From a bacterium (GTDB taxonomy: Bacteria > Patescibacteriota > Minisyncoccia > UBA6257 > MFKM01), in assembly GCA_030693325.1 (NCBI GenBank), contig JAUYAV010000019.1, forward strand, positions 1,324-65,323: a DNA stretch of 64,000 nt. Direction: 5' to 3'. The notes under the pieces were generated by a model. That model did no database searches. It had not been told where the DNA came from and saw only the letters and a list, made by a program, of their open reading frames with translations. The position numbers and the translations under genes are program-made. This document shows positions 748 to 49,028 of this stretch, one piece after another. Within the stretch, counting starts at the first letter, position 1, and every line of letters begins with the position of its first letter.

Positions 748-815
748 ATTTTTGGTAATTAAGTAATTATTGTAATTACGGCAATTGTTTAATTACTTAT
801 TTACCTGATTACTCA
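748..815. repeat. Degenerate array of GTAATTAC-type palindromic 9-mers (intergenic ruvB/pilB)
   Basis: ggtaattaagtaattattgtaattacggcaattgtttaattacttatt... read directly. Confidence 0.6.
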
Positions 816-823
816 ATTACTTT

Positions 824-2524
824 TTAAAAAACCAACGGCCCGGTCAATTTTTCCACCTCTTCAAAAGTGGTCAAGCCGGAAAGAACTTTAATAATGCCGT
901 CCTGCTGCATGTTCACCATATCTTGTTCTTTGGTCAATTTTTGAAGGTCTAAATCCGTGACTTTTTCTGAAATCGCTCTCATCACTTCCGGGGTCATCAA
1001 GAACAATTCAAAAATACCAAGCCGCCCCTGATAACCCAAACCACCGCACCACTGACAGCCCTCGGCTTCAAAAATTTTTCCGCCAGAGGCGGATCCGCCT
1101 TGGGCGGAGAAATTATCAAAACTGCTTTTATCCACCCTTGCCGGCAATTGGCTGATAAATTTTTTAATTTTCTTGGCCAATAAATCATCAATTTTTGCCT
1201 CTTTTCTGCAAACCGGACAAAGTTTTCTGACCAAACGCTGAGCGATAATCAGATTAATGGAAGGCGAAATCACCGAGGGCTGAACGCCCAAGTCAATCAA
1301 GCGGGGAATAGCGCCCACTGCTTCGTTGGTGTGAAGCGTGGAGAAAACCAAATGACCGGTCAAAGCCGCGTGCATGGCGATCTGGGCGGTTTCCAAGTCG
1401 CGAATTTCGCCGACTAAAATAACATCCGGGTCCTGCCGCAAAATTGAACGCAGACCGTTGGAAAAATCATAACCGGCTTTAGGGTTAACCTGCGTCTGTT
1501 CAATTCCTTCAATATGATATTCTATCGGGTCTTCAATGGTAATAATTTTTATTTCCGGCTGATAAATTTTTTTGAGGAAAGCATAAAGAGTGGTAGTTTT
1601 ACCCGAGCCGGTCGGGCCGGTATTGAGAATCATTCCATTGGGACGCTTTAATTCTTTTCCGATAATTTCCAAATCGTCTTTTCGCAAACCCAGTTTTGCA
1701 AAATCAACTTTTATAATAGCGGGGTCTAAAATCCTCAAAACAATGGTTTCGCCGAACTCCGAGGGAATAATTGAAGTCCTGATTTCAATATCCACATTTT
1801 CCAAACCGATGGTGAAACGGCCGTCCTGCGGCTGGTCATGAATATTTAATTTCATTTTTGAAAGAAGTTTTATCCGGGAAACCAGCGCCAAATAAACAGA
1901 GGAAGATAAATCATATAAATCATAAAGCAAACCGTCTATCCGCAGCCGCAGTTTGGCGTTGGCCCGGGCCGGTTCAAAATGAATATCCGAAGCCCGGCTG
2001 ACGAAAGCGCCGGCTAAAATAATTTCCAAAATCTGGGAAATCTGCGGCTCTTTGAATTCCTGAAGCTGAATTTTAAATTTTTCAAGGTCGCTTATTTTTT
2101 TTGTTAATTCCTTTATTCTGTCGGAGGCAATTTCCACCTTGCCGGTGATTTCTTTAGCATCCGGAGTGACAAATTGATAAAAAGTCCAGGCGTAATTCAA
2201 ACTTTCCTGGGAAACAATAAATATTTCCGGTTCATAGCCGTCAATTTTTAATTTGGCAATTATTTTTTTGGCTTCGGAAGTATTCGGGTCAAAAACCGCC
2301 AAACTTAATTGTTTTTTCTTTAAAAGAAACGCGGCCAATTTGGCTTCCTCCGCTTCTTTGTTGTTTATCAAACGCAGGGCTTTGGTCTGAACCGGCACGG
2401 TCGCCAAACTGATATAAGAATAATTTAATTTAGTCGCCCGGCGCTGGGCTTCCCGCTCCTGGGCTTCGTGGCGCTCTTTGGCCAATATTTCCCCTAAATT
2501 AGAATTTTTTTGTTCCCCGATCAT
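824..2524 (-). CDS. pilB: Type IV pilus assembly / type II secretion ATPase (PilB/GspE family)
   Basis: 566 aa; Walker A GPTGSGKTTTLYA; N-terminal GspII-like region; C-terminal CPVC...CQWC tetracysteine zinc motif typical of GspE/PilB. Confidence 0.85.
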   Translation of the reverse strand: MIGEQKNSNLGEILAKERHEAQEREAQRRATKLNYSYISLATVPVQTKALRLINNKEAEEAKLAAFLLKKKQLSLAVFDPNTSEAKKIIAKLKIDGYEPEIFIVSQESLNYAWTFYQFVTPDAKEITGKVEIASDRIKELTKKISDLEKFKIQLQEFKEPQISQILEIILAGAFVSRASDIHFEPARANAKLRLRIDGLLYDLYDLSSSVYLALVSRIKLLSKMKLNIHDQPQDGRFTIGLENVDIEIRTSIIPSEFGETIVLRILDPAIIKVDFAKLGLRKDDLEIIGKELKRPNGMILNTGPTGSGKTTTLYAFLKKIYQPEIKIITIEDPIEYHIEGIEQTQVNPKAGYDFSNGLRSILRQDPDVILVGEIRDLETAQIAMHAALTGHLVFSTLHTNEAVGAIPRLIDLGVQPSVISPSINLIIAQRLVRKLCPVCRKEAKIDDLLAKKIKKFISQLPARVDKSSFDNFSAQGGSASGGKIFEAEGCQWCGGLGYQGRLGIFELFLMTPEVMRAISEKVTDLDLQKLTKEQDMVNMQQDGIIKVLSGLTTFEEVEKLTGPLVF

Positions 2525-2699
2525 TTTAATTATTATACTCCGACTCTTAATTAAATAAAAAGGGCAGAATTAACCTTGTTTTCTCGCCAATATATCTTAT
2601 TTCGCCCTTAATATTGACAAACTTCTAAAAATATGTATTATTATAGATAGGCTCTATATTAAGTTCATTTACATAAACCAATAAAAACGGAGGTGGAAA

Positions 2700-2954
2700 A
2701 TGAAAAAAACAGGTTTAATCCTTAGTTTCGTGTTTTTCGTATTAACGCTAAGCGGCTGCGCGATAACAATGGGGCGGCCTCAAAGTCCTTTAATAATAGA
2801 TTTCAAACAACCCGAGATAACGTTTTGGGGAAATCCTAATCCTTACCCTTACTGGTATGGATATTACCCAAATACTTATGTCGTGCAAAAAACATTAATT
2901 TACAGAAACTATGGAAACTATCGTCCCCGCCACTATCCGCGCCACAGGAGATGA
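2700..2954 (+). CDS. Small lipoprotein, Tyr/Pro-rich (hypothetical)
   Basis: Signal peptide with lipobox LTLSGC; NPNPYPYWYGYYP low-complexity core; followed by a hairpin terminator. Confidence 0.55.
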   Translation: MKKTGLILSFVFFVLTLSGCAITMGRPQSPLIIDFKQPEITFWGNPNPYPYWYGYYPNTYVVQKTLIYRNYGNYRPRHYPRHRR

Positions 2955-2976
2955 CATCTCCGACAAAATCAATTTA

Positions 2977-3010
2977 CCCCGACTCAATTTAACGAGTCGG
3001 GGTTTTTATT
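2977..3010 (+). terminator. Rho-independent terminator
   Basis: ccccgactc-aatttaac-gagtcgggg followed by tttttatttt. Confidence 0.7.
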
Positions 3011-3058
3011 TTGAATAGATATTTTTGCGCTTTCGCTTAAAATTTATATAATTATGGC

Positions 3059-3583
3059 ATGTCAGGACATTCTCACTCTAAAACCATAAAACACGAAAAA
3101 AATGCCACCGACCAAAACCGCGGCCGGTTGTTCTCAAAATTGCTTAATGCGGTGGCAATTGCCGCCCGAGAAGAACCCAATCCCCAATTCAATCCCCGGT
3201 TGCGGACCACTATTGAAAAAGCCCGCCAAAACAATGTTCCCCAGGAAAATATTGAACGGGCGGTCAAACGCGCTTCGGAAGATAAAACTCTGGAAGAATT
3301 GATTATCGGCGCCTATGGCCCGGAAGGAGTCGCGGTTTTAGTTGAGGCCATCACTGATAATAAAAACCGCACCATCCCTGAAATAAAAAAAATCCTCAGC
3401 GACCATGATGCTAAGTTTACCGAGCCGGAAAGCGTTCTTTGGGCTTTTGAAAACAAAGACGGTCAATGGCAAGCCAAATTCAAACAACCGGTTTCCGAGG
3501 AAAGTAAAAACAAAATAAACGAACTTATTGAGACGCTGGAAGAGCAAGATGATGTTCAAAAAATAATAACGAATAGTAATTGA
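3059..3583 (+). CDS. yebC: YebC/PmpR-family DNA-binding regulatory protein (short form)
   Basis: N-terminus MSGHSHSKTIKHEKNATDQNRGRLFSKL matches the YebC signature MAGHSKWANIKHRK...RGKIFTKL. Only 174 aa, shorter than the canonical ~240. Sits immediately upstream of ruvC as in many bacteria. Confidence 0.75.
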   Translation: MSGHSHSKTIKHEKNATDQNRGRLFSKLLNAVAIAAREEPNPQFNPRLRTTIEKARQNNVPQENIERAVKRASEDKTLEELIIGAYGPEGVAVLVEAITDNKNRTIPEIKKILSDHDAKFTEPESVLWAFENKDGQWQAKFKQPVSEESKNKINELIETLEEQDDVQKIITNSN

Positions 3584-3627
3584 GTAATTGGGTAATTACT
3601 GTAATTACGGTAATTACTTAATTACTA
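3577..3627. repeat. GTAATTAC palindromic 9-mer array (yebC/ruvC spacer)
   Basis: tagtaattgagtaattgggtaattactgtaattacggtaattacttaattact. Confidence 0.7.
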
Positions 3628-3636
3628 AAATTTTCT

Positions 3637-4137
3637 ATGAAAATTTTAGGTATTGACCCCGGCAGTACTCGCATCGGTTACGGCTTAATTGATAAAAAGG
3701 GAAGTGATTTAAAATTTCTTAAAGCCGGCCTTTTAAAAATTTCATCTACAAACAAAAACCAGCGATTACTGGACTTGGAAAATTCATTTACTCAACTGCT
3801 TAAAAAAGAAAAACCTGACTTAGTCGCCTTGGAAAAACTTTATTTTGCCAAAAATCTAAAGACCGCCCTGGAAGTCAGCCAGTCGCGGGGAGTTTTGATT
3901 TTGATAATTTTAAAAAATAAACTGCCGCTGATTGAAATCTCTCCTTCCGAAGCCAAGCTGATAGTCGCCGGCGACGGCCGGGCCTCAAAAGAAGCCGTCG
4001 CTAAAATGGTTGGCCATTGTTTAAAAATTAATACCGCCAAACAAATTGATGATATTACCGACGCGCTCGCTTTAGCGATCGCCGCCGTCAATATTTACCG
4101 CAATTCCCTGCGGGGGTTGACCCCGTTAGAAGTCTAA
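3637..4137 (+). CDS. ruvC: Holliday junction resolvase RuvC
   Basis: MKILGIDPGSTRIGYGLID... RuvC N-terminal catalytic-Asp motif; 166 aa. The last codons and the stop lie inside a repeat element. Confidence 0.85.
   Translation: MKILGIDPGSTRIGYGLIDKKGSDLKFLKAGLLKISSTNKNQRLLDLENSFTQLLKKEKPDLVALEKLYFAKNLKTALEVSQSRGVLILIILKNKLPLIEISPSEAKLIVAGDGRASKEAVAKMVGHCLKINTAKQIDDITDALALAIAAVNIYRNSLRGLTPLEV
4112..4136. repeat. Inverted-repeat element arm GGGGGTTGACCCCGTTAGAAGTCTA
   Basis: Identical 25-mer at 38042..38066; partners at 4219..4236 and 4290..4311 in opposite orientation. Confidence 0.8.
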
Positions 4138-4289
4138 CTTAATCTGATGTAGCATAAAATAAATATTTAGATATAATTTAAGATTAATCCTAATAAATGC
4201 CAAGTATAAAAATTTAATAAACCCCGTTAGAAAGAGTAAGAATTTAAGTCTATCCGTCCTTTCCGAAAACAGAGCTATAAACTGAAAAA

Positions 4290-4331
4290 CTTTCTAACGG
4301 GGGTTGACAGGCGCTAGTTTATTAATATAAT
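4290..4331 (+). promoter_or_regulatory. Repeat arm CTTTCTAACGGGGGTTGACAGG carrying a sigma70-like promoter (TTGACA-16-TATAAT)
   Basis: TTGACA at 4304..4309, 16-nt spacer, TATAAT at 4326..4331, about 38 nt upstream of the ATG at 4370. Confidence 0.6.
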
Positions 4332-4369
4332 GACCGCAAAGAATAAAGGTCGTTAAAATTTTAAAACAT

Positions 4370-4489
4370 ATGGCCGAAGATATTTGCCCGGAATGCGGCA
4401 ACACATTAGCAAACAACTCCTGCCCTGTTTGCGGCTTTGAAAAAGAAACAGAGAAAGAAGAGCCAGTAGAAACCCAGGAGGCAGAATAA
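4370..4489 (+). CDS. Small zinc-ribbon protein (39 aa, CxxC...CxxC)
   Basis: MAEDICPECGNTLANNSCPVCGFEKETEKEEPVETQEAE. Not in the ORF track because it is short. Preceded by a consensus promoter and followed by a hairpin. Confidence 0.5.
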   Translation: MAEDICPECGNTLANNSCPVCGFEKETEKEEPVETQEAE

Positions 4490-4511
4490 TAAAAAAGAAT
4501 CAGGGACCAAG

Positions 4512-4560
4512 CCCCGTAGGTACCTTCCAAGCAGGACTACGGGGTAAGTTTTATAAAATG
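4512..4560. terminator. Hairpin between convergent small ORF and tyrS
   Basis: ccccgtag ... ctacgggg stem followed by taagtttt; overlaps the tyrS stop. Confidence 0.4.
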
Positions 4561-5709
4561 ATGCTTCCCTGCTTTTAAGATACTGGGTTTGTTGATAGAA
4601 ATTTTTTGACGCCAATCTTTAACGGTTTGGCCGTCTAAAGAAACCGCCCCCTGCTCAATTAATCGCTGGGCATCGGAAAGAGATTTAGCTAAATCGCATT
4701 TAACTAACAACTCTTTGGCCCCGATTGAGCAAGGGGTTATTTTTATGGTTTTGATTTGACTTGGGGGTTCTCCCTCTCTAAAAACTTTGATAAATTCTTC
4801 CTGGGCTTGGCCGGCTGTTTTATCTCCGTGATAAAATTTAACGATTTCCCGGGCTAATCTCAATTTTTGGTCTCGGGGGTTAAGACTGGCAATCTCTTCT
4901 TGCGACACATCGGTAAGTAATTCAAAATATCTGCTCATAATCTTATCCGGGATAGACATAATTTTTCCAAACATTTTAAACGGATCTTCGGTCAAGCCAA
5001 TATAATTATCGGAACTTTTACTCATTTTTTTTATCCCATCAATTCCCTCCAGTAAAGGCACCGTAATAATATCTTGCTCCGGCTGATTAAATTTCTGCTG
5101 GACTTTGCGGCCCATCAGCAGATTAAATTTTTGGTCTGTTCCTCCAATTTCCACGTCTGCCTTGAGTTCAACAGAGTCATAGCCCTGCAAAAGGGGATAA
5201 ATCAACTCTAAAAGGCTTATATCGGCTTTCGCTTCTATTCGGCGCTGGAATTCTTCTCTTTCAATTAATTGGGCGTAAGTAAAACGGGAAGTAATTTTAA
5301 CAACGAAATCCATTCCTTTTTTGGCATACCATTCGCTGTTGTAACGGATTTCAACTTTTTTTATATCTAAAATTTTAGCGGCCTGTTGGATATAATCCGC
5401 CATATTTTTTTGAACCTCGGCTTTCGTTAATGGTTTCCGGGCGTTGGCTCTGCCAGACGGATCGCCGATCATCGCCGTGAAATCGCCCACCAAAAGAATA
5501 ACCTGGTGGCCTAAATCCTGAAATTGTTTTAATTTCAAAAGAGAAACACTATGGCCCAAATGAAAATCTGGTGAAGTCGGGTCAATGCCGAATTTTACTC
5601 TCAATTTCGCTCCGGATTTTAATTTCTCTTCTAAGTGTTTTTTTAGAATCACCTCTTCCACTCCTTTGGTCAGTAAATTTTTAACTTTGTCCTCTAATTT
5701 ATCTTTCAT
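4537..5709 (-). CDS. tyrS: Tyrosyl-tRNA synthetase
   Basis: HIGH-type motif DFHLGH and KMSKS motif (KMSKSS); C-terminal S4-like region. Confidence 0.9.
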   Translation of the reverse strand: MKDKLEDKVKNLLTKGVEEVILKKHLEEKLKSGAKLRVKFGIDPTSPDFHLGHSVSLLKLKQFQDLGHQVILLVGDFTAMIGDPSGRANARKPLTKAEVQKNMADYIQQAAKILDIKKVEIRYNSEWYAKKGMDFVVKITSRFTYAQLIEREEFQRRIEAKADISLLELIYPLLQGYDSVELKADVEIGGTDQKFNLLMGRKVQQKFNQPEQDIITVPLLEGIDGIKKMSKSSDNYIGLTEDPFKMFGKIMSIPDKIMSRYFELLTDVSQEEIASLNPRDQKLRLAREIVKFYHGDKTAGQAQEEFIKVFREGEPPSQIKTIKITPCSIGAKELLVKCDLAKSLSDAQRLIEQGAVSLDGQTVKDWRQKISINKPSILKAGKHHFIKLTP

Positions 5710-5746
5710 TTTATTATTGTTATTATTAACAATAATAACACAACAA

Positions 5747-8212
5747 ATGAAGCCAAAAAAGAAAAAAATTATAAAAATATTCGGTTTGACAACGCTGGTT
5801 GTTTTAGTTTTAGCGGCAACCGGTTTAATATACCTGTCTTCGCTGATAAAAAATTTACCAGTTTTAGACCAAATCAGCGACTACCAACTGGCCCAGTCAA
5901 CTCAAATTTACGACCGGACAGGCAAAGTCCTGCTCTACGAAATCCACGGTCAGGAGAAAAGGACGGTCATTCCTTTTGAAGAAATCCCTGATTATGTCAA
6001 AAAAGCGACTATCGCTATTGAAGACCACGGTTTTTACAACCATCCTGCTTTTGACCTTAAAGCCATTGTCCGGGCCCTTTTTAATAATTTAATTCATGGC
6101 CAATCCAAGGGCGCATCCACTATTACCCAGCAATTAGCCAAAAATGCTTTCCTTTCGCCGGAAAAAACAATTCAAAGAAAAATAAAAGAACTCGCCTTGG
6201 CCATTGAGTTGGAGCGTTATTACGCCAAAGACGAAATTTTAACTTTTTATCTTAACCAAATCCCTTACGGCTCAAATATTTACGGCATTGAAGCCGCCGC
6301 CCAGGCCTATTTCGGCAAACCAGCCAAAGAACTTGACTTAGCCGAAGCCGCCGTTTTGGCCGCCGCGATCCAGGCGCCCAGTTATTATTCTCCCTGGGGT
6401 TCTCGTTTGGACGAACTTAAAAAACGCCAAGAACTTGTTTTGGACGAAATGTTAAAACAGGGTTTTATTGATGCCGGGCAAAAAGAACAAGCCATAAAAA
6501 CCAAACTGGTTTTCGCCTCTCCGTCTCTTAGCGGCATTAAAGCCCCGCATTTTGTTATGGAAGTGAAAGAATATCTGGTCAACCGCTACGGAGAAGAAAT
6601 GGTCCAAAAAGGCGGTTTAAAAGTTATCACGACACTTAATTACGAACTGCAGAAATCAGCGGAAACAGCGGTGACTGAAGGCGCCCAACGCAATGATACT
6701 CTCTATAAGGGAAAGAACGCCGCCTTGGTGGCTCAAGACGCTAAAACAGGCCAAATTTTAGCGCTGGTTGGCTCTCGCAACTATTATGATATTGAGAACG
6801 AGGGCAACTTTAATGTCGCTACCCAGGGCCTGCGCCAGCCCGGTTCCGCGCTCAAGCCCTTCGTTTATCTGACCGCTTTTGAAAGGGGGTATACTCCGGA
6901 CACGATATTATTTGATGTGCCTACTGAATTTACCGCCAACAATCCACTCTGTCCCGCGATAGTTGATTTCAACAATGAGAATCCGGTTTGTTTTCATCCT
7001 CGTAATTTCGATAAACAATTCCGTGGTCCGGTTGATTTAAAAAATGCCCTAGCTCAATCAATCAACATACCTGCGGTCAAGATGCTTTACCTGTCCGGTT
7101 TGGATAATGTTGTAAAAACTCTTCACAATTTCGGCATCACCACCTTGACCGATCCCCGGCGTTACGGCTTATCGCTGGTTTTAGGCGGCGGCGAAGTCAA
7201 GCTTATAGATTTAGTTGAGGCCTATTCCGTTTTAAGCCAGGAAGGGATCAAACATCCCCAGACCATAATTTTGGAAGTTAAAGACAGTAATGGAAAAATT
7301 CTGGAAGAATATCAAGACCGAAGTACAAAAATCGTTGATCCGCTTTATCCGCAATTAATAAACAATATTCTTTCCGACAAGGATTTGCGCCAGCCGCTTT
7401 TTTCTTCCAGTTTGAATCTCACGGTTTTCCCAGACCAGGAAGTCGCCTTGAAAACGGGAACCAGCAACAACTTCCACGATGCCTGGGCTTTGGGCTACAC
7501 CCCCTCTTTTGTGGTCGGGGTTTGGGCCGGAAATAATAATAATGCCCCGATGCAACAGCAAGCCGGCAGTATTCTGGCTGCCGTTCCTATCTGGCACGCT
7601 TTTATGGAAGAGATTTTAAAAAATGCGACCACTACCGAAACCTTCACCCGGCCGTATTCGATTTCAGCCGAAAAACCCATTCTCCGCGGCGAAGCCGTTA
7701 TTAACTATCAAGTCAATGGCGTGGAATATCCTCAAATTCATGACATTCTTTATTATATAGACAAAAACAACCCCCAAGGGCCAATCCCTCAAAACCCCCA
7801 AGACGATCCGCAATTTCAAAACTGGGAAGAAGAATTAATGGAATGGTTGAAACAGAATCTTCCGGATTTCAGCCGTTATAATCAAACGCCGCCGGGGTTA
7901 ACCCAGAATTCCAATACCGGACAAAATTCCAAACTGGAAATTGCCGCCTTTTCGCCTAATAATGGGGATTTCGTGAAAGACGCGATAAATATTAAGGCCA
8001 CAATAAAATCAGATGTTAATCTGGATAAAATTGAACTCTATTTTAATAATCAATTAATTGACCGCAAAAGTCCGGGGTCTCTTGGAGTATATGAATACCA
8101 ATACCAAATTGCCAATCAAAAATTTGATCTCCAAAATTCTCTTAAAATAAAAGTCAGTGATGTTTACGGAAATTCCGCCGAAAAAGAAGTAATAGTTTTT
8201 CAATTACTGTAA
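5747..8212 (+). CDS. Class A penicillin-binding protein (glycosyltransferase + transpeptidase) with C-terminal Ig-like extension
   Basis: Start moved to the in-frame ATG at 5747 (MKPKKKKIIKIFGLTTLVVL... TM anchor); the upstream part of the track ORF overlaps divergent tyrS. GT51 motifs (EDHGFYNH, QQLAKN); transpeptidase motif SALKP (Ser-x-x-Lys). Confidence 0.85.
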   Translation: MKPKKKKIIKIFGLTTLVVLVLAATGLIYLSSLIKNLPVLDQISDYQLAQSTQIYDRTGKVLLYEIHGQEKRTVIPFEEIPDYVKKATIAIEDHGFYNHPAFDLKAIVRALFNNLIHGQSKGASTITQQLAKNAFLSPEKTIQRKIKELALAIELERYYAKDEILTFYLNQIPYGSNIYGIEAAAQAYFGKPAKELDLAEAAVLAAAIQAPSYYSPWGSRLDELKKRQELVLDEMLKQGFIDAGQKEQAIKTKLVFASPSLSGIKAPHFVMEVKEYLVNRYGEEMVQKGGLKVITTLNYELQKSAETAVTEGAQRNDTLYKGKNAALVAQDAKTGQILALVGSRNYYDIENEGNFNVATQGLRQPGSALKPFVYLTAFERGYTPDTILFDVPTEFTANNPLCPAIVDFNNENPVCFHPRNFDKQFRGPVDLKNALAQSINIPAVKMLYLSGLDNVVKTLHNFGITTLTDPRRYGLSLVLGGGEVKLIDLVEAYSVLSQEGIKHPQTIILEVKDSNGKILEEYQDRSTKIVDPLYPQLINNILSDKDLRQPLFSSSLNLTVFPDQEVALKTGTSNNFHDAWALGYTPSFVVGVWAGNNNNAPMQQQAGSILAAVPIWHAFMEEILKNATTTETFTRPYSISAEKPILRGEAVINYQVNGVEYPQIHDILYYIDKNNPQGPIPQNPQDDPQFQNWEEELMEWLKQNLPDFSRYNQTPPGLTQNSNTGQNSKLEIAAFSPNNGDFVKDAINIKATIKSDVNLDKIELYFNNQLIDRKSPGSLGVYEYQYQIANQKFDLQNSLKIKVSDVYGNSAEKEVIVFQLL

Positions 8213-8240
8213 TTACGGTAATTACGGTAATTACGGTAAT
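8202..8240. repeat. GTAATTAC palindromic 9-mer array (PBP/dnaN spacer; includes PBP stop codon)
   Basis: caattactgtaattacggtaattacggtaattacggtaatt. Confidence 0.8.
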
Positions 8241-8241
8241 T

Positions 8242-10952: not shown

Positions 10953-11047
10953 TTTAAACTATAAAATCCACAAAGCAAGATTGCAAAAAAATACCTTTTG
11001 TGATTTACTTGTTGATAAGTTGGGGATAAGTGTTAAAATTAAACAAA
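10953..11047. promoter_or_regulatory. dnaA-rpmH divergent spacer with DnaA-box-like motifs (candidate oriC / dnaA promoter)
   Basis: aaATCCACAaa; ttgttgataag (reverse complement TTATCAACA); ggggataagtg (reverse complement TTATCCCCA). Confidence 0.5.
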
Positions 11048-11182: not shown

Positions 11183-11188
11183 TTCATT

Positions 11189-14854: not shown

Positions 14855-14865
14855 AATTTGAGTTT

Positions 14866-41707: not shown

Positions 41708-41758
<51 letters not shown>

Positions 41759-41990: not shown

Positions 41991-42059
41991 AAAAATTAAA
42001 AATTTAGTCATTGATTAAAAATTTTAAATTTAAAATTGTTTTATTGTAGAAAAAGTAAT

Positions 42060-45000
42060 ATGAATAAATCTAATACAGGATATACTCTCATCGAACTATT
42101 AATCTACACCGTTATCTTTGCCATCTCCGTCGGCGTCTTCTCCGGCGTCCTCATTACTTTCACCAGAGTTCAGACCCAGACTTCGGCTGATTCCGAGCTC
42201 ACCCAGCAGTTGTCGTTCGTCCAGTCAACTATCCAGCGGCTCGTCCGGGACAGCGCCAATATCCAAAATCCGGCCGGAGTCGCTTCTTCCAGTTTGGTCT
42301 TAAGAATGGCTTCTTCCTCTTTAGACCCCACCGTTATCTCCTCCGACGCCAACGGCATCTATCTCCAACAGGGCACAGGAGAAGTCATTCCTATCACCAA
42401 CAGCCAGGTCAAGGTTGCCCAGTTTGAGGCCATCAAATACGAAAACCCTAATGCCCACGCCATTGTCCAAGTCAATATTGCCTTAACCTACAACAGTCAG
42501 AATCCCTACCAGCAGATAACGAGAGCCCTTAAGATCGCCATCGGCAGAGTGTCCGCCGCCACCTTTGACGATAGTTTGATTCCCAATACCAACAATTCTT
42601 TTTCCCTGGGTGATGCCACTTACAAATGGAAAGACATCAACATTTCCAATCTCCTCAACGTGGGCCAGTTGATCACCGACCCCGTGGCCGGAGCCCAGAA
42701 CGGGTCTATCTATTACAATACTTCCTCCAGCGCTTTCCGGGGTTATGCCAACAGCGTTTGGTCTGTTCTTGGAGGCGTGGGCTGGGCCGCTTCCTCCACC
42801 AATATCTACAACACCAATGCCGGGAACGTGGGGATCGGCACCGCCAGCCCGGGTGATACCTTGGATGTAAACGGCTCTATTGTGACAACCGGAATCCAAG
42901 ACACCGGGAAAACTACCAAGATGTGGCTGTCAGGCGCTATAGCAGCCAAAACTCTTGATTATATGGAATACTCCTCCGACGCCAATGCACAGGTGGCGTA
43001 TGTGAGTAATGCTACTATAGCTAATCCAATATCTCATTGGAAGATGAATGATAATGCTGCTACTACAGTTGTGGTAGATTCAATGAGTGCTAACGCAGGA
43101 ACTGCTGATGCTAATACAGATACATTAGATACAACAGGAAAAATAAATGGTGCACTTTTGTGCAGTGTTTCACCAGTAAGAGCAGTAGCGATTGGTTCTA
43201 CGGGTTTTCCTGCTGTCAATACAGCGAGGTCTGTTAGTCATTGGGTATATCTTACATCAAGAAATGCTATTGGTGGAACATTCAGTTTTGGATATGGAAC
43301 AGGAGATACTAATAAGGGGTGGGCTATAGACGCAGGCGGAACATCTTCCACTACTCCATTACGAGTTGCTGGCTATTCAAATGATTGGTCTACTAATTAT
43401 ACTTTACCTTTAAATGAATGGCACCTTATTACTGTAACTTATGATGGAACGAATCTATTAAAATTATATGTGGATGGCACATTACAAGATTCTACTACAA
43501 GTTATACATTTGCTACTGTTCTTTCTACGGCGTATATTGGAGGAAATTGGGATGGCAGTGCTGCATATAGATTTAATGGTTCAATAGATGATGTTCGTAT
43601 CTATAATTTTGTTTTAACTGCAACAGAAGTCTTAGGACTCTATAATAATAATGCTGGAACTGAATTACAAAATCCTCAAGGAAATCTCCAATCCTACTCC
43701 GAAGCCACAATCAAAACTCAAGGAAGTTATGCGTTGAAGGCGGTGGCAGCGATAACGACTTCACTCAACAAAACCCTCACCCGCACCGTATCGCCTACGA
43801 TAGATTTATCTAACCAAACTCAGATCAAGTTTGATATTCGTGCCTCAAGACCTGGAAGCAATATCAAGATAGGCATCCATGATAGCGGCGGAACGACCAC
43901 TGAAACAACGCCTAATATTGCTTCAGCAGACACATATCAAACTATTACTTGGGATATATCGACGGTAACCAATGCCAATAAAGATGCGATAGACCAGATT
44001 ATAGTTACTATCATTAATGCGGACGCTGCCAATACTTTCTATATAGACAATTTGTATTCGCCTTCTGTCGGGTCGCTTGCCGATATCATATTCACGACAG
44101 CCAGTTCGGAAAGAATGAGGATTGATTCCTCCGGCAACGTCGGCATCGGGACGACGGTGCCGGGGGCGAAATTGCAAATAAGTAATGCTGACCAAACTTA
44201 TGCTCTTACGCTTGAAGATGCGAGAACTGGAAATGGACATTGGGTTAGATTTACAGAAGGCGGAACTGAAAAATGGGTTTTGGGACAAGTCGGCAGTGGA
44301 GTTGCTGGACGAGCAGATAATTTTGAAATTGTAAGTGGAAACGGCACTACTCGGTTGGCGATTGCTTCAACAACTGGCAACGTCGGCATCGGGACGACGG
44401 GGCCGGGGAGCCTTTTACACGTCAAGCATCCAAGTGGGAATCTGACGACCAGATTTGAGGGTTTGTCTAATTCGTATTCTTCAAAAATGTATTTAAGTTC
44501 CGTTTCCTCTGGCGATGGCGGCATGATGTATGATGCGGCTAGTAATCTCAGCAATATATTTTCCTACGGTGACCTCAGATTTAATGTAGGTACAGCAAAT
44601 ATATCGGGAGCAATTGGAAACGAGAGAATGGTTATACAACAAGGCGGCAACGTCGGCATCGGGACGACGGGACCGGGGTCACGTTTTACTGTTTATCAGA
44701 ATGTTTCCGGCGCTACAACGGCAGGAATGGAACTGAGATATGATGGTACTATCCACAGAAAGATGTATATGAATTACTCCGGTGATATGTATTTCTATAA
44801 TGGCACTAATGAGGGTTATCTTTCCTCAGCGGGCGTTTGGACAAACGCTTCTGACATCTCCTTAAAATCCAACATTCGGCCAATTGAGTATGGTTTGGCC
44901 GATCTATTAAAACTTCAACCGCGTTCTTACGAAATGAACGCTGACGGATTGCCTCAAATTGGGTTCGTGGCTCAAGAGGTTGAAGGGATAATTCCGGAAC

Positions 45001-45326
45001 TTGTTTCTATAGGTGGGCAAGGGTTAAAGGGTCTTTCTTATGGCAACCTGACTGCAATCAATACTAAAGGTATCCAAGAGCTTTACCAAAAGGTGCGTGG
45101 AGTTGATACGGCAGAAAATGGGGATGTAGCAATAACCGGCAACGTCGGCATCGGGACGGCGGATCCGGGAAGTTATAAATTAAAAGTCGTTGGAACTGTA
45201 AGTGTAAATAGCGGCACTAATATTATTTACAGATGCACAACCGCGGGAACGCTTCCAATCGGAGCATTAACAATAAATTCAGGAAATTGTGGCGCGAGTG
45301 CTGATACGGGGTTAAGTGTGAATTAG
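42060..45326 (+). CDS. Giant type IV pilin-like protein: class III signal + LamG-like lectin domain + GNVGIGTTxPG tail-fibre-like repeats + C-terminal S74 intramolecular chaperone domain
   Basis: Start at ATG 42060: MNKSNTG/YTLIELLIYTVIFAISVG prepilin signature with Glu at +5. LamG_3-like block (WHLITVTYDG...LYVDG...FNGSIDDVRIYN). Five GNVGIGT(A/T)xPG repeats. C-terminal SDISLKSNIRPIEYGLADLLKLQPRSYEMNADGLPQIGFVAQEVEGIIPELV matches the endosialidase-chaperone (Peptidase S74) consensus SDxRxK...GfIAQEVeevlPelV. Confidence 0.75.
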   Translation: MNKSNTGYTLIELLIYTVIFAISVGVFSGVLITFTRVQTQTSADSELTQQLSFVQSTIQRLVRDSANIQNPAGVASSSLVLRMASSSLDPTVISSDANGIYLQQGTGEVIPITNSQVKVAQFEAIKYENPNAHAIVQVNIALTYNSQNPYQQITRALKIAIGRVSAATFDDSLIPNTNNSFSLGDATYKWKDINISNLLNVGQLITDPVAGAQNGSIYYNTSSSAFRGYANSVWSVLGGVGWAASSTNIYNTNAGNVGIGTASPGDTLDVNGSIVTTGIQDTGKTTKMWLSGAIAAKTLDYMEYSSDANAQVAYVSNATIANPISHWKMNDNAATTVVVDSMSANAGTADANTDTLDTTGKINGALLCSVSPVRAVAIGSTGFPAVNTARSVSHWVYLTSRNAIGGTFSFGYGTGDTNKGWAIDAGGTSSTTPLRVAGYSNDWSTNYTLPLNEWHLITVTYDGTNLLKLYVDGTLQDSTTSYTFATVLSTAYIGGNWDGSAAYRFNGSIDDVRIYNFVLTATEVLGLYNNNAGTELQNPQGNLQSYSEATIKTQGSYALKAVAAITTSLNKTLTRTVSPTIDLSNQTQIKFDIRASRPGSNIKIGIHDSGGTTTETTPNIASADTYQTITWDISTVTNANKDAIDQIIVTIINADAANTFYIDNLYSPSVGSLADIIFTTASSERMRIDSSGNVGIGTTVPGAKLQISNADQTYALTLEDARTGNGHWVRFTEGGTEKWVLGQVGSGVAGRADNFEIVSGNGTTRLAIASTTGNVGIGTTGPGSLLHVKHPSGNLTTRFEGLSNSYSSKMYLSSVSSGDGGMMYDAASNLSNIFSYGDLRFNVGTANISGAIGNERMVIQQGGNVGIGTTGPGSRFTVYQNVSGATTAGMELRYDGTIHRKMYMNYSGDMYFYNGTNEGYLSSAGVWTNASDISLKSNIRPIEYGLADLLKLQPRSYEMNADGLPQIGFVAQEVEGIIPELVSIGGQGLKGLSYGNLTAINTKGIQELYQKVRGVDTAENGDVAITGNVGIGTADPGSYKLKVVGTVSVNSGTNIIYRCTTAGTLPIGALTINSGNCGASADTGLSVN

Positions 45327-45351
45327 GAGTCACGGGAAAAAACAATTCTTC

Positions 45352-45376
45352 TATCAAGGTTGAGCCTCAATAATTT
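45352..45376. repeat. Cassette-boundary imperfect palindrome TATCAAGGTTGA(A/G)CCTCAATAAT (copy 1 of 5)
   Basis: Further copies at 45727..45746 (inverted), 46227..46250, 46448..46473 and 47260..47282 (inverted). Confidence 0.7.
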
Positions 45377-45650
45377 AGAATTTATAGGTAGTCCTAAAAC
45401 TCATCGCAGTCTCCATCCGCAAACCTACCCCTCGAAGCCTTTCAACGGAGACAGCCTGCCGCCTATAATTTAATCTTGCTTTTTATCCCCCTCTCCCGTT
45501 CCCTTCAATTTCCTTATCTCCTCCCCGATCTCATCAAAAAATCCCTCATAGAATTTCTTGTCTTCTACGGTTATTTCCCCTTCTTTCAATCTCTCCGCGG
45601 CTTTCTTTTAATCTCTTGGTGTTTTCACCCCCGCCACCGGGTAATAAGTT

Positions 45651-45682
45651 CCTCACTGATATACTTAAGTATATCAGTGAGG
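45651..45682. repeat. Perfect 32-bp palindrome CCTCACTGATATACTTAAGTATATCAGTGAGG
   Basis: Read directly; a 22-bp core copy is at 46358..46379. Confidence 0.9.
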
Positions 45683-45787
45683 AAGAATATCTTTTTATTT
45701 TATAATTATCTAAGAAGTACATTATCGAGGTCGAACCTTGATAATTCAAATTGACAAAAAGTTTTAACACGCTAAAATAATAATTAT

Positions 45788-46009
45788 ATGTCTAGACAAT
45801 TTACGGCAATATACAAAAAAAGCGGAAAATGGTATCTTGGCTGGATTGAAGAAATCCCGGGAGTGAATACACAAGGGAAAACCCTCAAAGAAACCAAAGA
45901 AAACCTCAAAGAGGCGGTTTTGTTGATTCTTGAAACCAACCGCGCTCTCGCGAAAAAAGAAGCTCGCGCCGGCGGAATAACTCGTGAATCAATTTCAGTT
46001 TCTTTATAG
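45788..46009 (+). CDS. hicB: HicB-family antitoxin
   Basis: TAIYKKSGKWYLGWIEEIPGVNTQGKTLKETKENLKEAVLLILE matches the HicB/UPF0150 fold signature. Promoter TTGACA-16-TAAAAT lies upstream. Confidence 0.7.
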   Translation: MSRQFTAIYKKSGKWYLGWIEEIPGVNTQGKTLKETKENLKEAVLLILETNRALAKKEARAGGITRESISVSL

Positions 46010-46019
46010 ATTATTTATA

Positions 46020-46217
46020 ATGAAGCGGAAAACCTTAATCAGTTATATTGTTAAAAACGGATGCATATTCATCAGAGAAGGCGCGAAACACAGCGTCTTT
46101 TTTAATCCCTTGATCAAACGTTCTTCTACCGTGCCGCGGCATAATGAAATTGATGATTTTTTAGCCAGAAAAATTTGCCGCGATTTAGGAGTTAGCGAGT
46201 TCAAAAAACAAAAATAG
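46020..46217 (+). CDS. hicA: HicA-family mRNA interferase toxin
   Basis: Start moved to MKRKTLISYIVKNGC... REGAKHSVFFNP...VPRHNEID fits the HicA (YcfA-like) pattern around the catalytic His. Directly follows hicB. Confidence 0.65.
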   Translation: MKRKTLISYIVKNGCIFIREGAKHSVFFNPLIKRSSTVPRHNEIDDFLARKICRDLGVSEFKKQK

Positions 46218-46473
46218 ATTGTAATATATCAAGGTTGAACCTCAATAGTTTCTAGAAGCGATTCAAAATTGTCCCGATTTCATCGAGGTCCGATGACTCG
46301 CGACTCCTGTCGGAGACTCTCGACAAAGTCGGAGCAAATCCATCGTAATCTACGAAGCTGATATACTTAAGTATATCAGTACGAATTAATGCGAGATTTC
46401 AAAATCAACGGCTCAACGGGAATTCCCGTTGAGCCGTTGAAATATTTTATCAAGGTTGAACCTCAATAATTTT

Positions 46474-46560
46474 TTGAGATTTTTATTATACTTTAGCCGG
46501 TGTTTGGGCTATTACTAAGGTCTGTTTTTTTATTTCTTCCAAAAGTTTTTTGTCTTCAAT
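46474..46560. repeat. Partial duplicate of the recA 3' end and downstream sequence (direct repeat with 47296..47395)
   Basis: 38 + 33 identical nt blocks (gagatttttattatactttagccggtgtttgggc ... tttttttatttcttccaaaagttttttgtcttc). Its minus-strand reading frame ends ...[23 protein letters not shown], like RecA. Confidence 0.85.
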
Positions 46561-46596
46561 TGACTTTCGATTTTTGGGTATGATAAAATAAGACAT

Positions 46597-46827
46597 ATGG
46601 TCACTATCACTATTCCTAAAAAAGAATATCAAAACATCATTCAGAGACAATCGCTTCTTGAAAAGGAAATGGGGTTTTTGAGAAAGACCCTTTTCGAGCT
46701 GGATGAGATAAATATTAAGCCGTCTGTCTTGCGCCGATGGGAGCGTATTAGCCGTGAGCTTGATCGGGGACACGGCCGTTCTTTTTCTTCGTTTAGTGAG
46801 ATGAAAGGATGGTTAAGAAATCTCTGA
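46597..46827 (+). CDS. Putative antitoxin of RelE/ParE-type module
   Basis: 76 aa; immediately upstream of the toxin with 1-nt spacing. Confidence 0.5.
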   Translation: MVTITIPKKEYQNIIQRQSLLEKEMGFLRKTLFELDEINIKPSVLRRWERISRELDRGHGRSFSSFSEMKGWLRNL

Positions 46828-46828
46828 T

Positions 46829-47122
46829 ATGGCCGAGAATGTCTATAGAGATATTGTAAGAATTATATATTCCCGTGAGGTTGAAGACGCTCTCAAGAAA
46901 CTCAAAAAGAGAAATAAAGATATATTTGATAGAGTCGAAAAACAGATAATCAAAATTCTTCGCGAGCCGAATATCGGCAAGCCGCTCCGCTACACTTTAA
47001 GAAACCGCCGACGGGTGCATGTCGGCTCTTTTGTTTTAATCTACGAATTTCATCAGGGCGAGTTGCGCTTTATTGATTTTGATCACCATGATTTAATTTA
47101 TAAGAAGTCCAAGCAGCAATAA
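46829..47122 (+). CDS. RelE/ParE-family toxin
   Basis: ...EPNIGKPLRYTLRNRRRVHVGSFVLIYEF... fits the RelE/StbE fold pattern; 97 aa. Confidence 0.6.
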   Translation: MAENVYRDIVRIIYSREVEDALKKLKKRNKDIFDRVEKQIIKILREPNIGKPLRYTLRNRRRVHVGSFVLIYEFHQGELRFIDFDHHDLIYKKSKQQ

Positions 47123-47317
47123 TTAAATGAGAAAGCCCGAATTTGCAAGCAAGAAATCAATATCGTACACAGCATATTGGGAACATCCGCGAAAATTAGG
47201 CAAACGTGCGGCAAACAAAAGCGAACGGCAGGGCGCGAAACGGAAATTATGGGTTTCTCTTGAGGTTAAACCTTGATAATAGATAACATTAATAGATGTT
47301 TCTTTTTGAGATTTTTA

Positions 47318-48319
47318 TTATACTTTAGCCGGTGTTTGGGCCGCGGTGAGGGTCTGTTTTTTTATTTCTTCCAAAAGTTTTTTGTCTTCTTTTAATTTTA
47401 ATTTGGCGGCTTCAAGACCGACACCTAATTTTTCTTTATTGAAACTGTAAGTGTTGCCGGATTTGATGACACTGCCGTATTTAATAGCGGTATTCAAAAC
47501 ATCGGCTTCCGGGACGATTCCTTCGCCGAAAATAATTTCAAACTCGGCGATTTTAAAAGGCGCTGCCACTTTATTTTTGACTACCTTAGCATGCACCAGC
47601 TGGCCGATTATTTCTTCGCCTTTTTTCAGTTTGGCTTTGGCCCGGATATCAATTCTAATTGAAGAGAAAAATTTCAAAGCGCGGCCGCCGGGAGTCGTTT
47701 CGGGATTGCCGAACATAATTCCGATTTTCATCCGGATTTGGTTGATAAAAATAATGACGGTTTTTGATTTGGAAGTAATGGCAGTTAATTTTCGCAGGGC
47801 CTGGCCCATCATCCGGGCTTGCAAGCCCATAAATTGATCGCCCATTTCGCCTTCAATTTCCGCGCGGGGAGTAAGAGCCGCCACCGAGTCCACTACGATT
47901 AAGTCAATTATTCCTGACCTTACCAGACTTTCAACGATATTCAGGGCCTCTTCGCCGCTGTCCGGCTGAGAAAGTAAGAGGTCGTCGGTTTTTACCCCAA
48001 GTTTTCTTGCGTAATCAATATCAAAAGCGTGTTCGGCGTCAATATAAGCGGCTTTGCCGCCTTTTTTTTGAAGCTCGGCAATGGCATGAAGAGTTAAAGT
48101 GCTTTTGCCCGACATTTCCGGGCCGTAAATTTCCACCATCCGGCCGCAGGGCAGACCGCCTACTCCCAAAGCCAAATCCAGAGAAAAAGAGCCGGAAGGG
48201 ATGACCTCGGTTTTGCCGATTTTTTTATCTCCGAGCCGCATTATAGATCCTTCGCCGAATTTAGTTTTTAAACTTTCAATTAAATCGGAAAAATCTTTGT
48301 CTTTATTGGTTTTGTCCAT
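47318..48319 (-). CDS. recA: Recombinase RecA
   Basis: Walker [11 protein letters not shown]; L1/L2 loop regions; 333 aa. Confidence 0.95.
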
Positions 48320-48331
48320 AATAGTGTTCGC

Positions 48332-48376
48332 GAATTACTGTAATTACTGTAATTGCTGTAATTGCTGTAATTACTT
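48332..48376. repeat. GTAATTAC/GTAATTGC palindromic 9-mer array
   Basis: gaattactgtaattactgtaattgctgtaattgctgtaattact. Confidence 0.8.
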
Positions 48377-48979
48377 TGGTAAGTATAAAACTTGTTTAGT
48401 AATTGTTATTTCCCGACCGAGAAATCTTTTTATTTGAAATTGAATATTGTTTTGCCCCGGCTGAAGAGGAAAATCTTTTTGAAAATATCCGTTTTCATCA
48501 ATATAAGTGTTTTCTTTATTTATCATTAATTGGTCTCCGGATTTCACGCGGCCTTCTATTTTGAGATTAGGGTCGGTAATCGGACTGGTTGAACTGGCTA
48601 ATTGGCCGAGAAGCGATAAGGTCGGTTTTCCCAAAAAAAAGTTGTATTGAAAAGCCAGATAGCCGGCTAAAATTACGAAAATCAGCGCGAAAATAATTTT
48701 TTTGTTTAAGGGCTTGGGGCTGAAGCGATTAATTGGCAGATGATCGTTTGTTCCGGATTTTCTAAGTTGGGTATTTTTTTGGTATTCCTGCCAAAGTTTT
48801 TGCCCGTCAACGTTCAAGGCATCCGCGATTTTAAAAAGATAACTTCGGATGTAAGGCGCCGCCGGCAATTTTTCGTATTTTTCTTCAATAAGCGCTTTTA
48901 AAAATCTTTCCGAGATGCCGGTTGATTCCGAAAGTTTGGCTAAATTAATATTTTTATCCTGAAGAATTTCGGTTAACAT
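48371..48979 (-). CDS. RodZ-like HTH (XRE) + TM cytoskeleton-associated protein
   Basis: N-terminal HTH (LAKLSESTGISERFLKALIE); central TM; C-terminal periplasmic domain. Confidence 0.6.
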   Translation of the reverse strand: MLTEILQDKNINLAKLSESTGISERFLKALIEEKYEKLPAAPYIRSYLFKIADALNVDGQKLWQEYQKNTQLRKSGTNDHLPINRFSPKPLNKKIIFALIFVILAGYLAFQYNFFLGKPTLSLLGQLASSTSPITDPNLKIEGRVKSGDQLMINKENTYIDENGYFQKDFPLQPGQNNIQFQIKRFLGREITITKQVLYLPK

Positions 48980-48984
48980 AGTAA

Positions 48985-49028
48985 AAATTACAGTAATTAC
49001 TGTAATTACGTAATTACAGTAATTGTTG
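48985..49028. repeat. GTAATTAC palindromic 9-mer array
   Basis: aaattacagtaattactgtaattacgtaattacagtaattg. Confidence 0.8.

Follow-up and report, generated by a model that had tools for sequence, protein, structure and literature searches.

A palindromic tandem repeat at gene junctions of a CPR bacterium

The window analyzed here is a 64-kb stretch of bacterial DNA (64,000 nucleotides; contig JAUYAV010000019.1 of assembly GCA_030693325.1) that carries short tandem arrays at ten gene junctions, most of them built around the palindromic octamer GTAATTAC. The ClpP, Jag and helix-turn-helix (HTH) proteins encoded in the window find their best matches in Paceibacterota / Parcubacteria metagenome-assembled genomes (MAGs), near Jorgensenbacteria, and exact protein matches (MDP3052747.1 and MDP3052760.1) come from a MAG. 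The host is a Paceibacteria-type bacterium of the candidate phyla radiation (CPR). Ten arrays of 2–6 units each were counted between positions 754 and 49025, and all ten loci listed in the original prediction proved to be arrays. The neighbors of A1 were identified by Pfam matches (RuvB and T2SSE). The arrays, with two weaker or single occurrences, are as follows.

A1, 754–821: degenerate, GTAATTAA GTAATTAT T GTAATTAC G GCAATTGT TTAATTAC, then decayed units ending in TTAC; occupies the 79-bp spacer from the RuvB start (744, minus strand) to the stop of a PilB-like gene (824, minus strand), the stop being 3 nt away.
A2, 3575–3626: six units, GTAATTGA GTAATTGG GTAATTACT GTAATTACG GTAATTACT TAATTAC; the TGA stop of YebC lies inside the first unit and the RuvC ATG 11 nt past the last.
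A3, 8201–8241: 4.4 units, consensus AATTACNGT, 96% match; convergent junction of a penicillin-binding protein (PBP) gene and DnaN, where a unit TAA is the PBP stop and the DnaN stop adjoins the array.
A4, 12261–12313: 5.7 units, including GCAATTAC twice and GTAATTGC once; convergent junction of Jag (R3H) and a 370-aa gene, whose stop is the TAA of a unit; the last nine codons of Jag are the first units.
A5, 14865–14897: period 8, four half-site units, CAATTAC TTAATTAC CCAATTAC TTAATTAC; GTAATTRR on the coding strand.
A6, 15287–15303: two half-site units at 7-nt spacing (TTAATTAC TAATTAC), from the start of a 129-aa gene to the stop of a TraG/VirB4-like gene.
A7, 18253–18285: 3.4 units; the end of a 338-aa gene (...CAA TTA CAG TAA) lies inside, and the ATG of a PrgI-like gene is 1 nt off.
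A8, 36107–36151: five units, GAAATTAC A GCAATTAC T GTAATTAC A GTAATTAC G GAAATTAAT; starts 38 nt past the NusA stop and extends to the ClpP ATG.
A9, 48332–48375: 4.8 units, from the stop of an HTH_25 gene (AAG TAA in a unit) to the RecA ATG (12 nt off).
A10, 48985–49025: 4.4 units with a spacerless step, GTAATTACGTAATTAC; FtsK stop 24 nt off, ATG of the HTH_25 gene 5 nt off.
31189–31205: a pair of GTAATTT with 10-nt spacing, within the 31-bp spacer from a 350-aa gene to PNPase; a weak and doubtful remnant or proto-array, outside the ten.
52706–52713: lone GTAATTAC in a 196-bp intergenic region, the only perfect octamer away from the arrays.

Repeat unit, enrichment and periodicity

Dinucleotide-preserving shuffles predict 0.70 copies of the octamer GTAATTAC for the window, which has 19, a number that none of 100 shuffles reached. 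For the two-unit pattern GTAATTACNGTAATTAC, at most three mismatches being allowed, 27 matches were counted against 0.22 expected, so the earlier claim that the arrays are too frequent for chance holds. Tandem Repeats Finder returned arrays of period 9 at 3592, 8202, 12262, 18254, 36107, 48333 and 48986, and a mixed array at 755–822. Both variants named in the original prediction, GCAATTAC and GTAATTGC, were found. This 9-mer family is the sole multi-locus repeat family in the window, and beyond 49.0 kb the window holds no array, the octamer at 52706 standing alone. The genome-wide spread named in the original prediction goes further than these 64 kb support.

The period is 9 nt in eight arrays. 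The periodicity is not strict, as had been proposed, since A5 has a period of 8 and A6 of 7, 8-nt stretches occur in A1 and A2 (whose first units are the 8-nt GTAATTGA and GTAATTGG), and one step of A10 (49002–49017) is without a spacer base. A5 and A6 contain only the half-site AATTAC, and the perfect octamer is absent from both. The conserved core is therefore better described as the hexamer AATTAC (GTAATT on the opposite strand), repeated every 9 nt with three variable bases; the palindrome GTAATTAC arises when these three bases are NGT, and the unit can be written (N)GTAATTAC or AATTACNNN. Outside the arrays AATTAC and GTAATT occur 17 and 22 times, respectively, where ~29 and ~32 copies are expected, and are thus not enriched. 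The arrays begin with AATTAC and finish with GTAATT, leaving AATT at each end. There are no spacers between the units, and we agree that the arrays are not clustered regularly interspaced short palindromic repeats (CRISPR): units of 8 bp lie 0–1 nt apart, compared with CRISPR repeats of 23–50 bp separated by unique spacers of similar length.

Arrays follow stop codons and are absent from divergent promoters

On a mechanically made gene map, in which 11.4% of the window is intergenic, all ten arrays are intergenic and fill most or all of their 18–84 bp spacers. None of the 19 perfect octamers lies within a gene. The original prediction would have been refuted by arrays being equally common inside genes, which is not what is observed, and the positional bias that it suggested examining is evident: the arrays lie at gene ends. 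Arrays occupy 8 of 38 tandem junctions and 2 of 13 convergent junctions. Divergent junctions hold the largest share of noncoding DNA in the window, yet none of the 13 carries an array. The view that arrays sit between convergent, divergent and tandem genes alike is thus correct for the tandem and convergent junctions and incorrect for the divergent ones.

Each array comes after a stop codon. In seven genes the stop codon lies inside an array unit, and in three more it is 0–3 nt away, which together account for 10 of the 12 adjacent gene ends. Six of the seven end in the context NNG-TAA-TTA (the PBP, Jag, 370-aa, 129-aa, 338-aa and HTH genes), and YebC ends in the TGA of the GTAATTGA variant. 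The PBP, which ends ...CAA TTA CTG TAA inside its array, had already been put forward as an example of arrays supplying stop codons. In the case of Jag, translation runs through two GCAATTAC units, which have CAA in place of TAA, and adds nine codons (ELQQLQQLQ-stop). Jag is consequently 150 aa long, and its listed homologues are mostly 141–144 aa, typically with ~94% query coverage and without the nine codons. On the other side, eight arrays end 1–12 nt from a start codon.

None of the eight genes preceded by arrays has a Shine-Dalgarno-like (SD) site, compared with 5 of the 57 other genes. As SD sites are rare everywhere in this genome, the arrays are not standing in for them, and a role as an SD substitute was rejected. 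Over the window as a whole, an SD-like 4-mer lies 3–13 nt before the start in only 5 of 65 genes. Upstream sequences are mostly A/T-rich, and TATAAT is found 6–8 nt ahead of the ATG in several genes; these features suggest leaderless or SD-independent initiation. A promoter element was likewise rejected. A sigma-70-like scan found 51 sites where 44.6 were expected, none in arrays beyond chance, and by our own reading TAATTA is without the conserved final T of the -10 hexamer.

The three homologous-recombination genes of the window, ruvB (1–744), ruvC (3637–4137) and recA (47318–48319), each lie right behind an array, as does the HTH gene upstream of recA. This pattern was noticed post hoc; our own, uncorrected arithmetic puts it at ~0.001 for ruvB, ruvC and recA, and it is absent in other array-bearing organisms. 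The region within 9.5 kb of dnaA contains seven of the ten arrays (p ~0.01 by our own arithmetic, also post hoc). The window carries dnaA-dnaN and a likely oriC: clusters resembling DnaA boxes (TGTGGAAA and TTATCCAC-like) lie on either side of dnaA at 9352–9554 and 10953–11188, the latter spacer containing rpmH. The cumulative GC skew reaches its minimum at 8–12 kb, and all genes between 12 and 34 kb are on the minus strand, head-on to the inferred fork.

Syntenic relatives lack the arrays

All nine of the testable orthologous junctions in related genomes lack an array. The most extensive comparison is with L093 (ENA ERZ27247363), whose Jag is 87% identical and which is syntenic with the window over 3.0–22.4 kb at 73–85% nucleotide identity, most aligned blocks being 77–85% identical. 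None of its six junctions corresponding to A2–A7 has an array, and the spacers there are 0, 138, -11, 9, 8 and 14 bp. YebC and RuvC abut (TAA ATG), a 138-bp GC-rich inverted repeat stands between the PBP and DnaN genes, Jag and its convergent neighbor overlap by 11 bp, and the last three spacers, at the sites of A5, A6 and A7, belong to a type IV secretion-like cluster. Flanking sequences are conserved up to the array edges, as illustrated by the 24 of 24 identical bases ahead of A7. At the remaining junctions, A8 is absent upstream of clpP in L070–L076 (ClpP 86–92% identical), and A9 and A10 are absent from L073, L075 and L079–L091 (HTH protein up to 91% identical). In the relatives the ftsK-HTH spacer, the site of A10, either measures 14 bp or contains a promoter-like TATAAT; between the HTH gene and recA there is an overlap or a gap of 22 bp.

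Because the arrays are missing from all syntenic relatives examined, they are young and not a conserved signal. The nine arrays at testable junctions are lineage-specific gains between formerly tightly packed stops and starts. Two short sequences in relatives are possible seeds, namely the single AATTACTG (stop context CAG-TAA-TT) in the 14-bp spacer of L093 at the A7 site, and TAATTAATTAC, which L087 has after its HTH stop. An uptake or recombination signal, which was among the functions originally offered, is unlikely, as such signals are common to relatives and present within genes and neither is true here. We rejected DNA uptake sequences (DUS/USS) for the same reasons and because the copies are in tandem.

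Logan contigs assembled separately from the run SRR13727537 match the window at 100% identity. One covers 3596–12291, passing through A3 and ending within A2 and A4; a second passes through A8 and ends in a (GA)23 run. The identity of an independently assembled contig means that the arrays are not peculiar to one assembly. The contig ends inside two arrays show that the arrays behave like repeated or length-variable DNA.

GTAATTAC arrays in other organisms

Among 185,579 species-representative genomes, three consecutive perfect units turned up at 8 places; metagenomes gave 60 such stretches and viral contigs one. None of these matches is the window genome, and the lone viral match is uninformative. 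Some of the metagenome matches are unrelated, such as L007, which codes for a Gly-Asn-Tyr repeat protein, and the other minisatellites L048 and L068. Many others are intergenic arrays in gene-dense contigs, including 12 stretches from CXWJ01 and 15 from WBZQ01. One of these arrays lies between SusC and SusD genes, neighbors that point to Bacteroidota as the source of the contigs. A cyanobacterial origin of the GC-rich array contigs was rejected on the same grounds, and because the highly iterated palindrome HIP1 (GCGATCGC) is essentially absent. Outside the host lineage, arrays are thus present in Bacteroidota, in a Saccharibacteria MAG and in Marinobacter. The Saccharibacteria array consists of three units that run from the atpA stop (AAG TAA in unit 1) to the atpG start, which is 7 nt beyond the last unit.

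The Bacteroidota arrays share the build of A1, A2 and A5. Their left arm consists of GTAATTGG(N) or GTAATTGA units, their center of perfect GTAATTACN and their right arm of (C/T)(C/T)CAATTAC, so that the arms GTAATTGG... and ...CCAATTAC are common to the window and the Bacteroidota arrays. These arrays reach 19 copies, with arms that are at times 100% uniform. Of the 26 arrays in these other loci whose junctions could be classified, tandem junctions hold 22, convergent junctions 3 and divergent junctions 1, the background being 220:58:46.

Several of these metagenome contigs carry other short repeats. The Bacteroidota-like stretches L021, L036, L037, L042, L044 and L058 contain further multi-locus tandem families with units of 8–10 nt, each with its inverted complement (GTTGATAAAG/TTATCAACCC, GGTTTCAG/AACCCTGA and GGTTGGAA/TCCAACCA); they occur in both CXWJ01 and WBZQ01. 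In L002, at 6290–6650 (also in L017 and L061; 'uncultured archaeon' MAG, GC 0.30), there are 10–12 GGTAATTAC sites within ~400 bp, both dispersed and in tandem, adjoining a tRNA gene and upstream of an open reading frame. The cluster is iteron-like and may serve an integrated element as its origin or operator.

A proposed self-expanding tandem-repeat family

The best-supported reading of these observations, to which we give a probability of about 0.5, is that the arrays form a young, lineage-specific, self-expanding tandem-repeat family that was seeded at stop contexts, grew by slippage and is tolerated in spacers. Any gene ending in the common context G-TAA-TT(A) could serve as a seed. A duplication of 9 nt would then create AATT...AATT direct repeats, between which replication slippage could add or remove units, probably aided by hairpins of the self-complementary units. 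Arrays would last only where they are harmless, that is past stop codons and in spacers rich in A/U, the genome making little use of SD sites, and divergent promoter regions and reading frames would remain array-free. No required function need be supposed. The side effects would be new stops, changed or lengthened C-termini, AU-rich hairpins in the DNA and mRNA between cistrons, and an increase of the stop-to-start distance from 0–14 nt to 21–53 nt.

This reading would account for the recency of the arrays, their placement, the supply of stops, the altered C-termini and the uniform arms seen elsewhere, and the AATT found at both array ends is what slippage between AATT repeats predicts. Among the functions originally offered, a selfish microsatellite-like element is the one that fits best, the arrays being absent from every syntenic relative examined.

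Several points weigh against it. Slippage amplifies local sequence and leaves unexplained how one unit came to lie at at least ten loci in a short time, nor does it explain the identical unit and arm variants in unrelated phyla; this may call for a driver with sequence specificity, whether protein, enzyme or selection. A recognizable seed is present at only ~2 of the ~6 orthologous sites compared. Recent duplication predicts that the spacer base N should be more alike within than between arrays, and by eye it is not. The arrays ahead of ruvB, ruvC and recA, although noted post hoc, hint at a regulon. Because the recurrence of one unit across loci and phyla is not explained, we retain three alternatives, in which the arrays are protein-binding sites, selected hairpins or the work of an enzyme acting at TTAC.

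Alternative explanations

The arrays could be cis-regulatory sites along which a protein polymerizes and thereby co-regulates the downstream genes. The protein might be a dimeric DNA binder on 9-bp-phased palindromes, a possibility also offered in the original prediction, or an S1/cold-shock-type binder of single-stranded RNA or DNA that acts on the mRNA. The phased palindromic octamers would suit the former, and 8 of the 10 arrays stop 1–12 nt short of a start codon. The nonpalindromic arrays or parts of arrays (A5, A6 and the 5' portions of A1 and A2) always present GTAATT on the coding strand, and the arm units hold ATTGG/CCAAT, which we take to be the Y-box core. The genes behind arrays include ruvB, ruvC, recA and the HTH gene beside recA; this link is post hoc, and the arrays of other organisms lie at susC-susD and atpA-atpG. 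Action of this kind has been proposed, and partly shown, for the TAACTGA and Nostoc heptamers (PMC4679880; bioRxiv 10.1101/2022.06.06.494920). However, the 13 divergent promoter regions are all without arrays, and two arrays lie between convergent genes, where there is no initiation to regulate. Relatives share these genes and the HTH protein but are array-free, so that the whole regulon would have to have arisen in one lineage. A Pfam scan of about 60 window proteins yielded no candidate lineage-specific binding protein, and the one-armed Bacteroidota arrays upstream of starts are oppositely oriented. An array for a dimeric DNA binder is a doubtful candidate, with the avoidance of divergent promoters and the two nonpalindromic half-site arrays against it, and we regard regulatory binding in general as doubtful too, although no other alternative seems to us likelier.

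Less probable, in our estimate, is that the arrays are selected RNA or DNA hairpins akin to repetitive extragenic palindromic (REP) sequences, acting as bidirectional attenuators or terminators at convergent ends and as intercistronic stabilizers, RNase III sites or coupling devices elsewhere. Eight arrays have folding energies of -8 to -25 kcal/mol (z-scores against shuffles from -2 to -9), although any palindromic tandem repeat folds well and the z-scores thus weigh little. Hairpins are lacking in A5 and A6, whose energies are 0 to -2.7 kcal/mol (minimum free energies for A5 of -1.0/-2.7). The array stems are AU-rich, with two G-C pairs per unit. Arrays lie at gene 3' ends and in operon interiors and never between divergent genes. 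Gene 3' ends and operon interiors are the classic placement of REP sequences and of bacterial interspersed mosaic elements (BIMEs). Array A3 occupies the site of the 138-bp GC-rich inverted repeat of L093, and the GCAATTAC and GTAATTGC units of A4 are able to pair with one another. The window also has a heptamer-built hairpin (36782–36866), and hairpins of the short tandemly repeated repetitive (STRR) elements between hupS and hupL provide a precedent (PMC2670836). Against selection on the fold, the better-folding strand is inconsistent, being the sense strand for A1, A2 and A5, the antisense strand for A8 and A9, and neither for A7 and A10, which are equal. Selection specific to RNA, sought through the asymmetry of G-U and A-C pairs, was rejected, as sense and antisense folding energies have no consistent bias. 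Intrinsic termination was rejected as well: of the seven arrays within the scanned 1–20 kb (A8–A10 lie outside the scan) only A2 matches a terminator-like pattern, and ordinary terminators with a GC-rich stem and T-run are used elsewhere. Relatives with the same operons lack the arrays, and no Rfam match falls over any array.

We consider it improbable, more so than either of the above, that the arrays are the trace of a sequence-specific agent moving between phyla (CPR, Bacteroidota and Gammaproteobacteria), as opposed to passive microsatellites, the agent being a mobile element or a mobile repeat-binding protein. In the first form it would be a minimal mobile element consisting solely of its own cleavage and target sites and driven by an HUH-type enzyme that acts at TTAC. 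In the second, a repeat-binding protein would select sites and so establish, in a single species-level lineage, a post-transcriptional or SOS-like regulon comprising ruvB, ruvC, recA and clpP.

An enzyme acting at TTAC, of which the arrays would be product or substrate, is a long shot in its own right. It could be a HUH transposase of the IS200/IS605 or REP-associated tyrosine transposase (RAYT) type that cuts single-stranded DNA 3' of TTAC and moves units of 9n nt; alternatively, 9-bp target-site duplications could have been repeated at the symmetric site TTAC-N-GTAA. TTAC is present on both strands of every unit, and IS608 inserts 3' of TTAC and requires TTAC for excision (PMC5027513). Related enzymes mobilize REP palindromes (PMC3116915, PMC8266576). 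One may read the unit as a symmetric 9-bp site, and its recurrence over many loci and several phyla suggests a sequence-specific driver. The argument is one of resemblance, though, and TTAC or GTAA is present at just 1 of 6 orthologous L093 sites. Known HUH elements require subterminal hairpins of at least ~20 nt. Bacterial cut-and-paste excision, moreover, normally leaves no duplicated footprints. The Pfam scan found no transposase, RAYT (TnpA-REP) or other HUH gene in the window, and a free-standing LAGLIDADG gene (39200–39682) was rejected as the driver because it is also present in relatives without arrays. Canonical parS has no match in the window with up to three mismatches allowed.

We do not believe that the arrays are artefacts of mis-assembly, chimeric joins or vector sequence, a worry raised with the original prediction: although the source is a MAG and short-read contigs break at two arrays, over nine arrays the gene order is that of syntenic relatives sampled elsewhere, every array shows variants of its own and keeps register with the reading frames and stops beside it, the identical SRR13727537 contigs traverse A3 and A8, and comparable arrays occur in unrelated assemblies.

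Relation to known repeat families

By their features, the arrays belong to the STRR / TAACTGA class of multi-locus intergenic short tandem repeats, having a unit of at most 10 nt repeated head to tail, ten loci in 64 kb, intergenic placement at gene ends and a patchy distribution. Their unit does not match those of the named families, CCCCAGT, TTGGTCA and CAACAGT (STRR1–3) and TAACTGA. We found no match to the array sequence and no account of intergenic palindromic tandem repeats in CPR bacteria in the searchable literature, within which a palindromic nonamer family is noted here for the first time in a CPR genome. The original prediction that this is not a described element is accordingly right for the exact sequence, for which there is no paper, and not for the class (STRR, PMC2670836; TAACTGA, PMC4679880).

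The closest likeness is to marine Beggiatoaceae, which have 169 sets of intergenic TAACTGA direct repeats of 2–6 copies each (MacGregor 2015, PMC4679880). Most sets lie a few nt before SD-less start codons and some overlap the end of the upstream reading frame; the repeat is absent from the close relative B. alba and scattered over Cyanobacteria and Bacteroidetes, and its function is not known (PMC4679880). The present arrays resemble these sets in several features: a short unit repeated head to tail, 2–6 units per set, many and almost exclusively intergenic loci, proximity to SD-less starts, overlaps with upstream gene ends, patchiness across phyla and a close relative free of them. They differ in having a 9-nt unit with a palindromic 8-nt core, compared with a nonpalindromic heptamer, so that orientation is mostly undefined here, and in their convergent junctions, hairpin folding and CPR host. 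The cyanobacterial STRR heptamers form hairpins between operon genes, e.g. hupS-hupL, and have been proposed to act in transcript stability or translational coupling (PMC2670836); Nostoc heptamer repeats near start codons affect reporter expression (bioRxiv 10.1101/2022.06.06.494920). STRRs share with our arrays the tandem short unit, the many intergenic sites and the potential for hairpins within operons. Their units are 7 nt long, differ in sequence, are not palindromic singly and come from another phylum.

REP sequences are species-specific, thought to be selfish and sometimes co-opted (PMC3116915). Like REP, BIME and REPIN elements, the arrays are extragenic, palindromic and hairpin-forming, and lie at gene 3' ends and in operons, not at promoters. 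REPs are imperfect palindromes of ~20–60 bp, unlike the tandem 9-mers found here, and the REP-type conserved tetranucleotide is not present in the arrays. REPs are also linked to a RAYT transposase, of which the Pfam scan of about 60 window proteins showed none. The unit is only 8–9 bp; it is the whole array (33–68 bp) that forms an imperfect palindrome, and A5 and A6 are nonpalindromic.

Two further systems bear a more limited resemblance. MetJ metboxes (AGACGTCT repeated 2–5 times) and the heptads of omega repressors are contiguous sites of 7–8 bp that are bound cooperatively by one dimer per unit, and the metboxes, like our octamers, are palindromic. Such sites overlap promoters and are conserved together with their repressor, whereas the arrays avoid divergent promoters and are missing from close relatives. 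Mycobacterial interspersed repetitive units (MIRUs) are tandem repeats within operons whose ends overlap the flanking stop and start codons, and in this the arrays are similar; MIRU units are longer (40–100 bp) and contain small reading frames.

Other repeats and islets in the window

At the 3' end of recA, 46471–46567 is a near-exact copy of 47303–47399. The surrounding region (45327–47400) contains toxin-antitoxin-like genes, UPF0150/HicB-like (45788–46009), HicA (45984–46217) and ParE (46829–47122), together with four copies of the hairpin motif ATCAAGGTTGAACCTCAATAAT, and has the look of an islet that integrated at the 3' end of recA. An inverted-repeat element found across the clade, GGGGTTGACCCCGTTAGAAGTCTA ... 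TCTAACGGGG(T)T, is present at 4110–4147 and 38040–38077, with inverted partners near 4290, 38215 and 38590 and further copies upstream of the HTH gene in L087 and L088. It sometimes overlaps a TTGACA -35 box, is similar to the 138-bp PBP / DnaN repeat of L093 and may be an element resembling miniature inverted-repeat transposable elements (MITE-like) or a regulatory palindrome.

The hairpin at 36782–36866, between clpP and an aminotransferase gene, consists of six RAAGCAT heptamers followed by their inverted complement (ATGCTTC/ATGTTCT) and extends into the start of the next gene; relatives have heptamer arrays of their own, e.g. L070 5044–5077. The perfect (GA)23 run (41710–41756) lies ~280 bp upstream of a gene (42036–45326) for a 1096-aa pilin-like protein with an N-terminal methylation motif, Laminin_G_3 and Peptidase_S74, and could be a contingency locus. 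Finally, a PaaX-like protein (24888–25481) combines a Cas2-like domain with a winged helix. An inverted repeat, TATAACAATTTT...AAAATTGTTATA around GACGACCGCA, flanks its gene on each side within 24827–25562 and is a likely operator.

Implications

Short multi-locus intergenic repeats such as STRR and TAACTGA have been known for decades, and neither their origin nor their function is established. The family described here adds a palindromic minimal unit in the gene-dense, very small genome of a CPR bacterium. It also allows a before-and-after comparison, as the array-free junctions of relatives (0–14 bp) reveal the gain of arrays, the effects on C-termini and stop codons, and the stretching of gene pairs. 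Arrays of this kind break short-read assemblies and cause annotation artefacts at gene ends. The presence of the same unit and the same arm variants across unrelated phyla argues for a sequence-specific driver that it should be possible to find.

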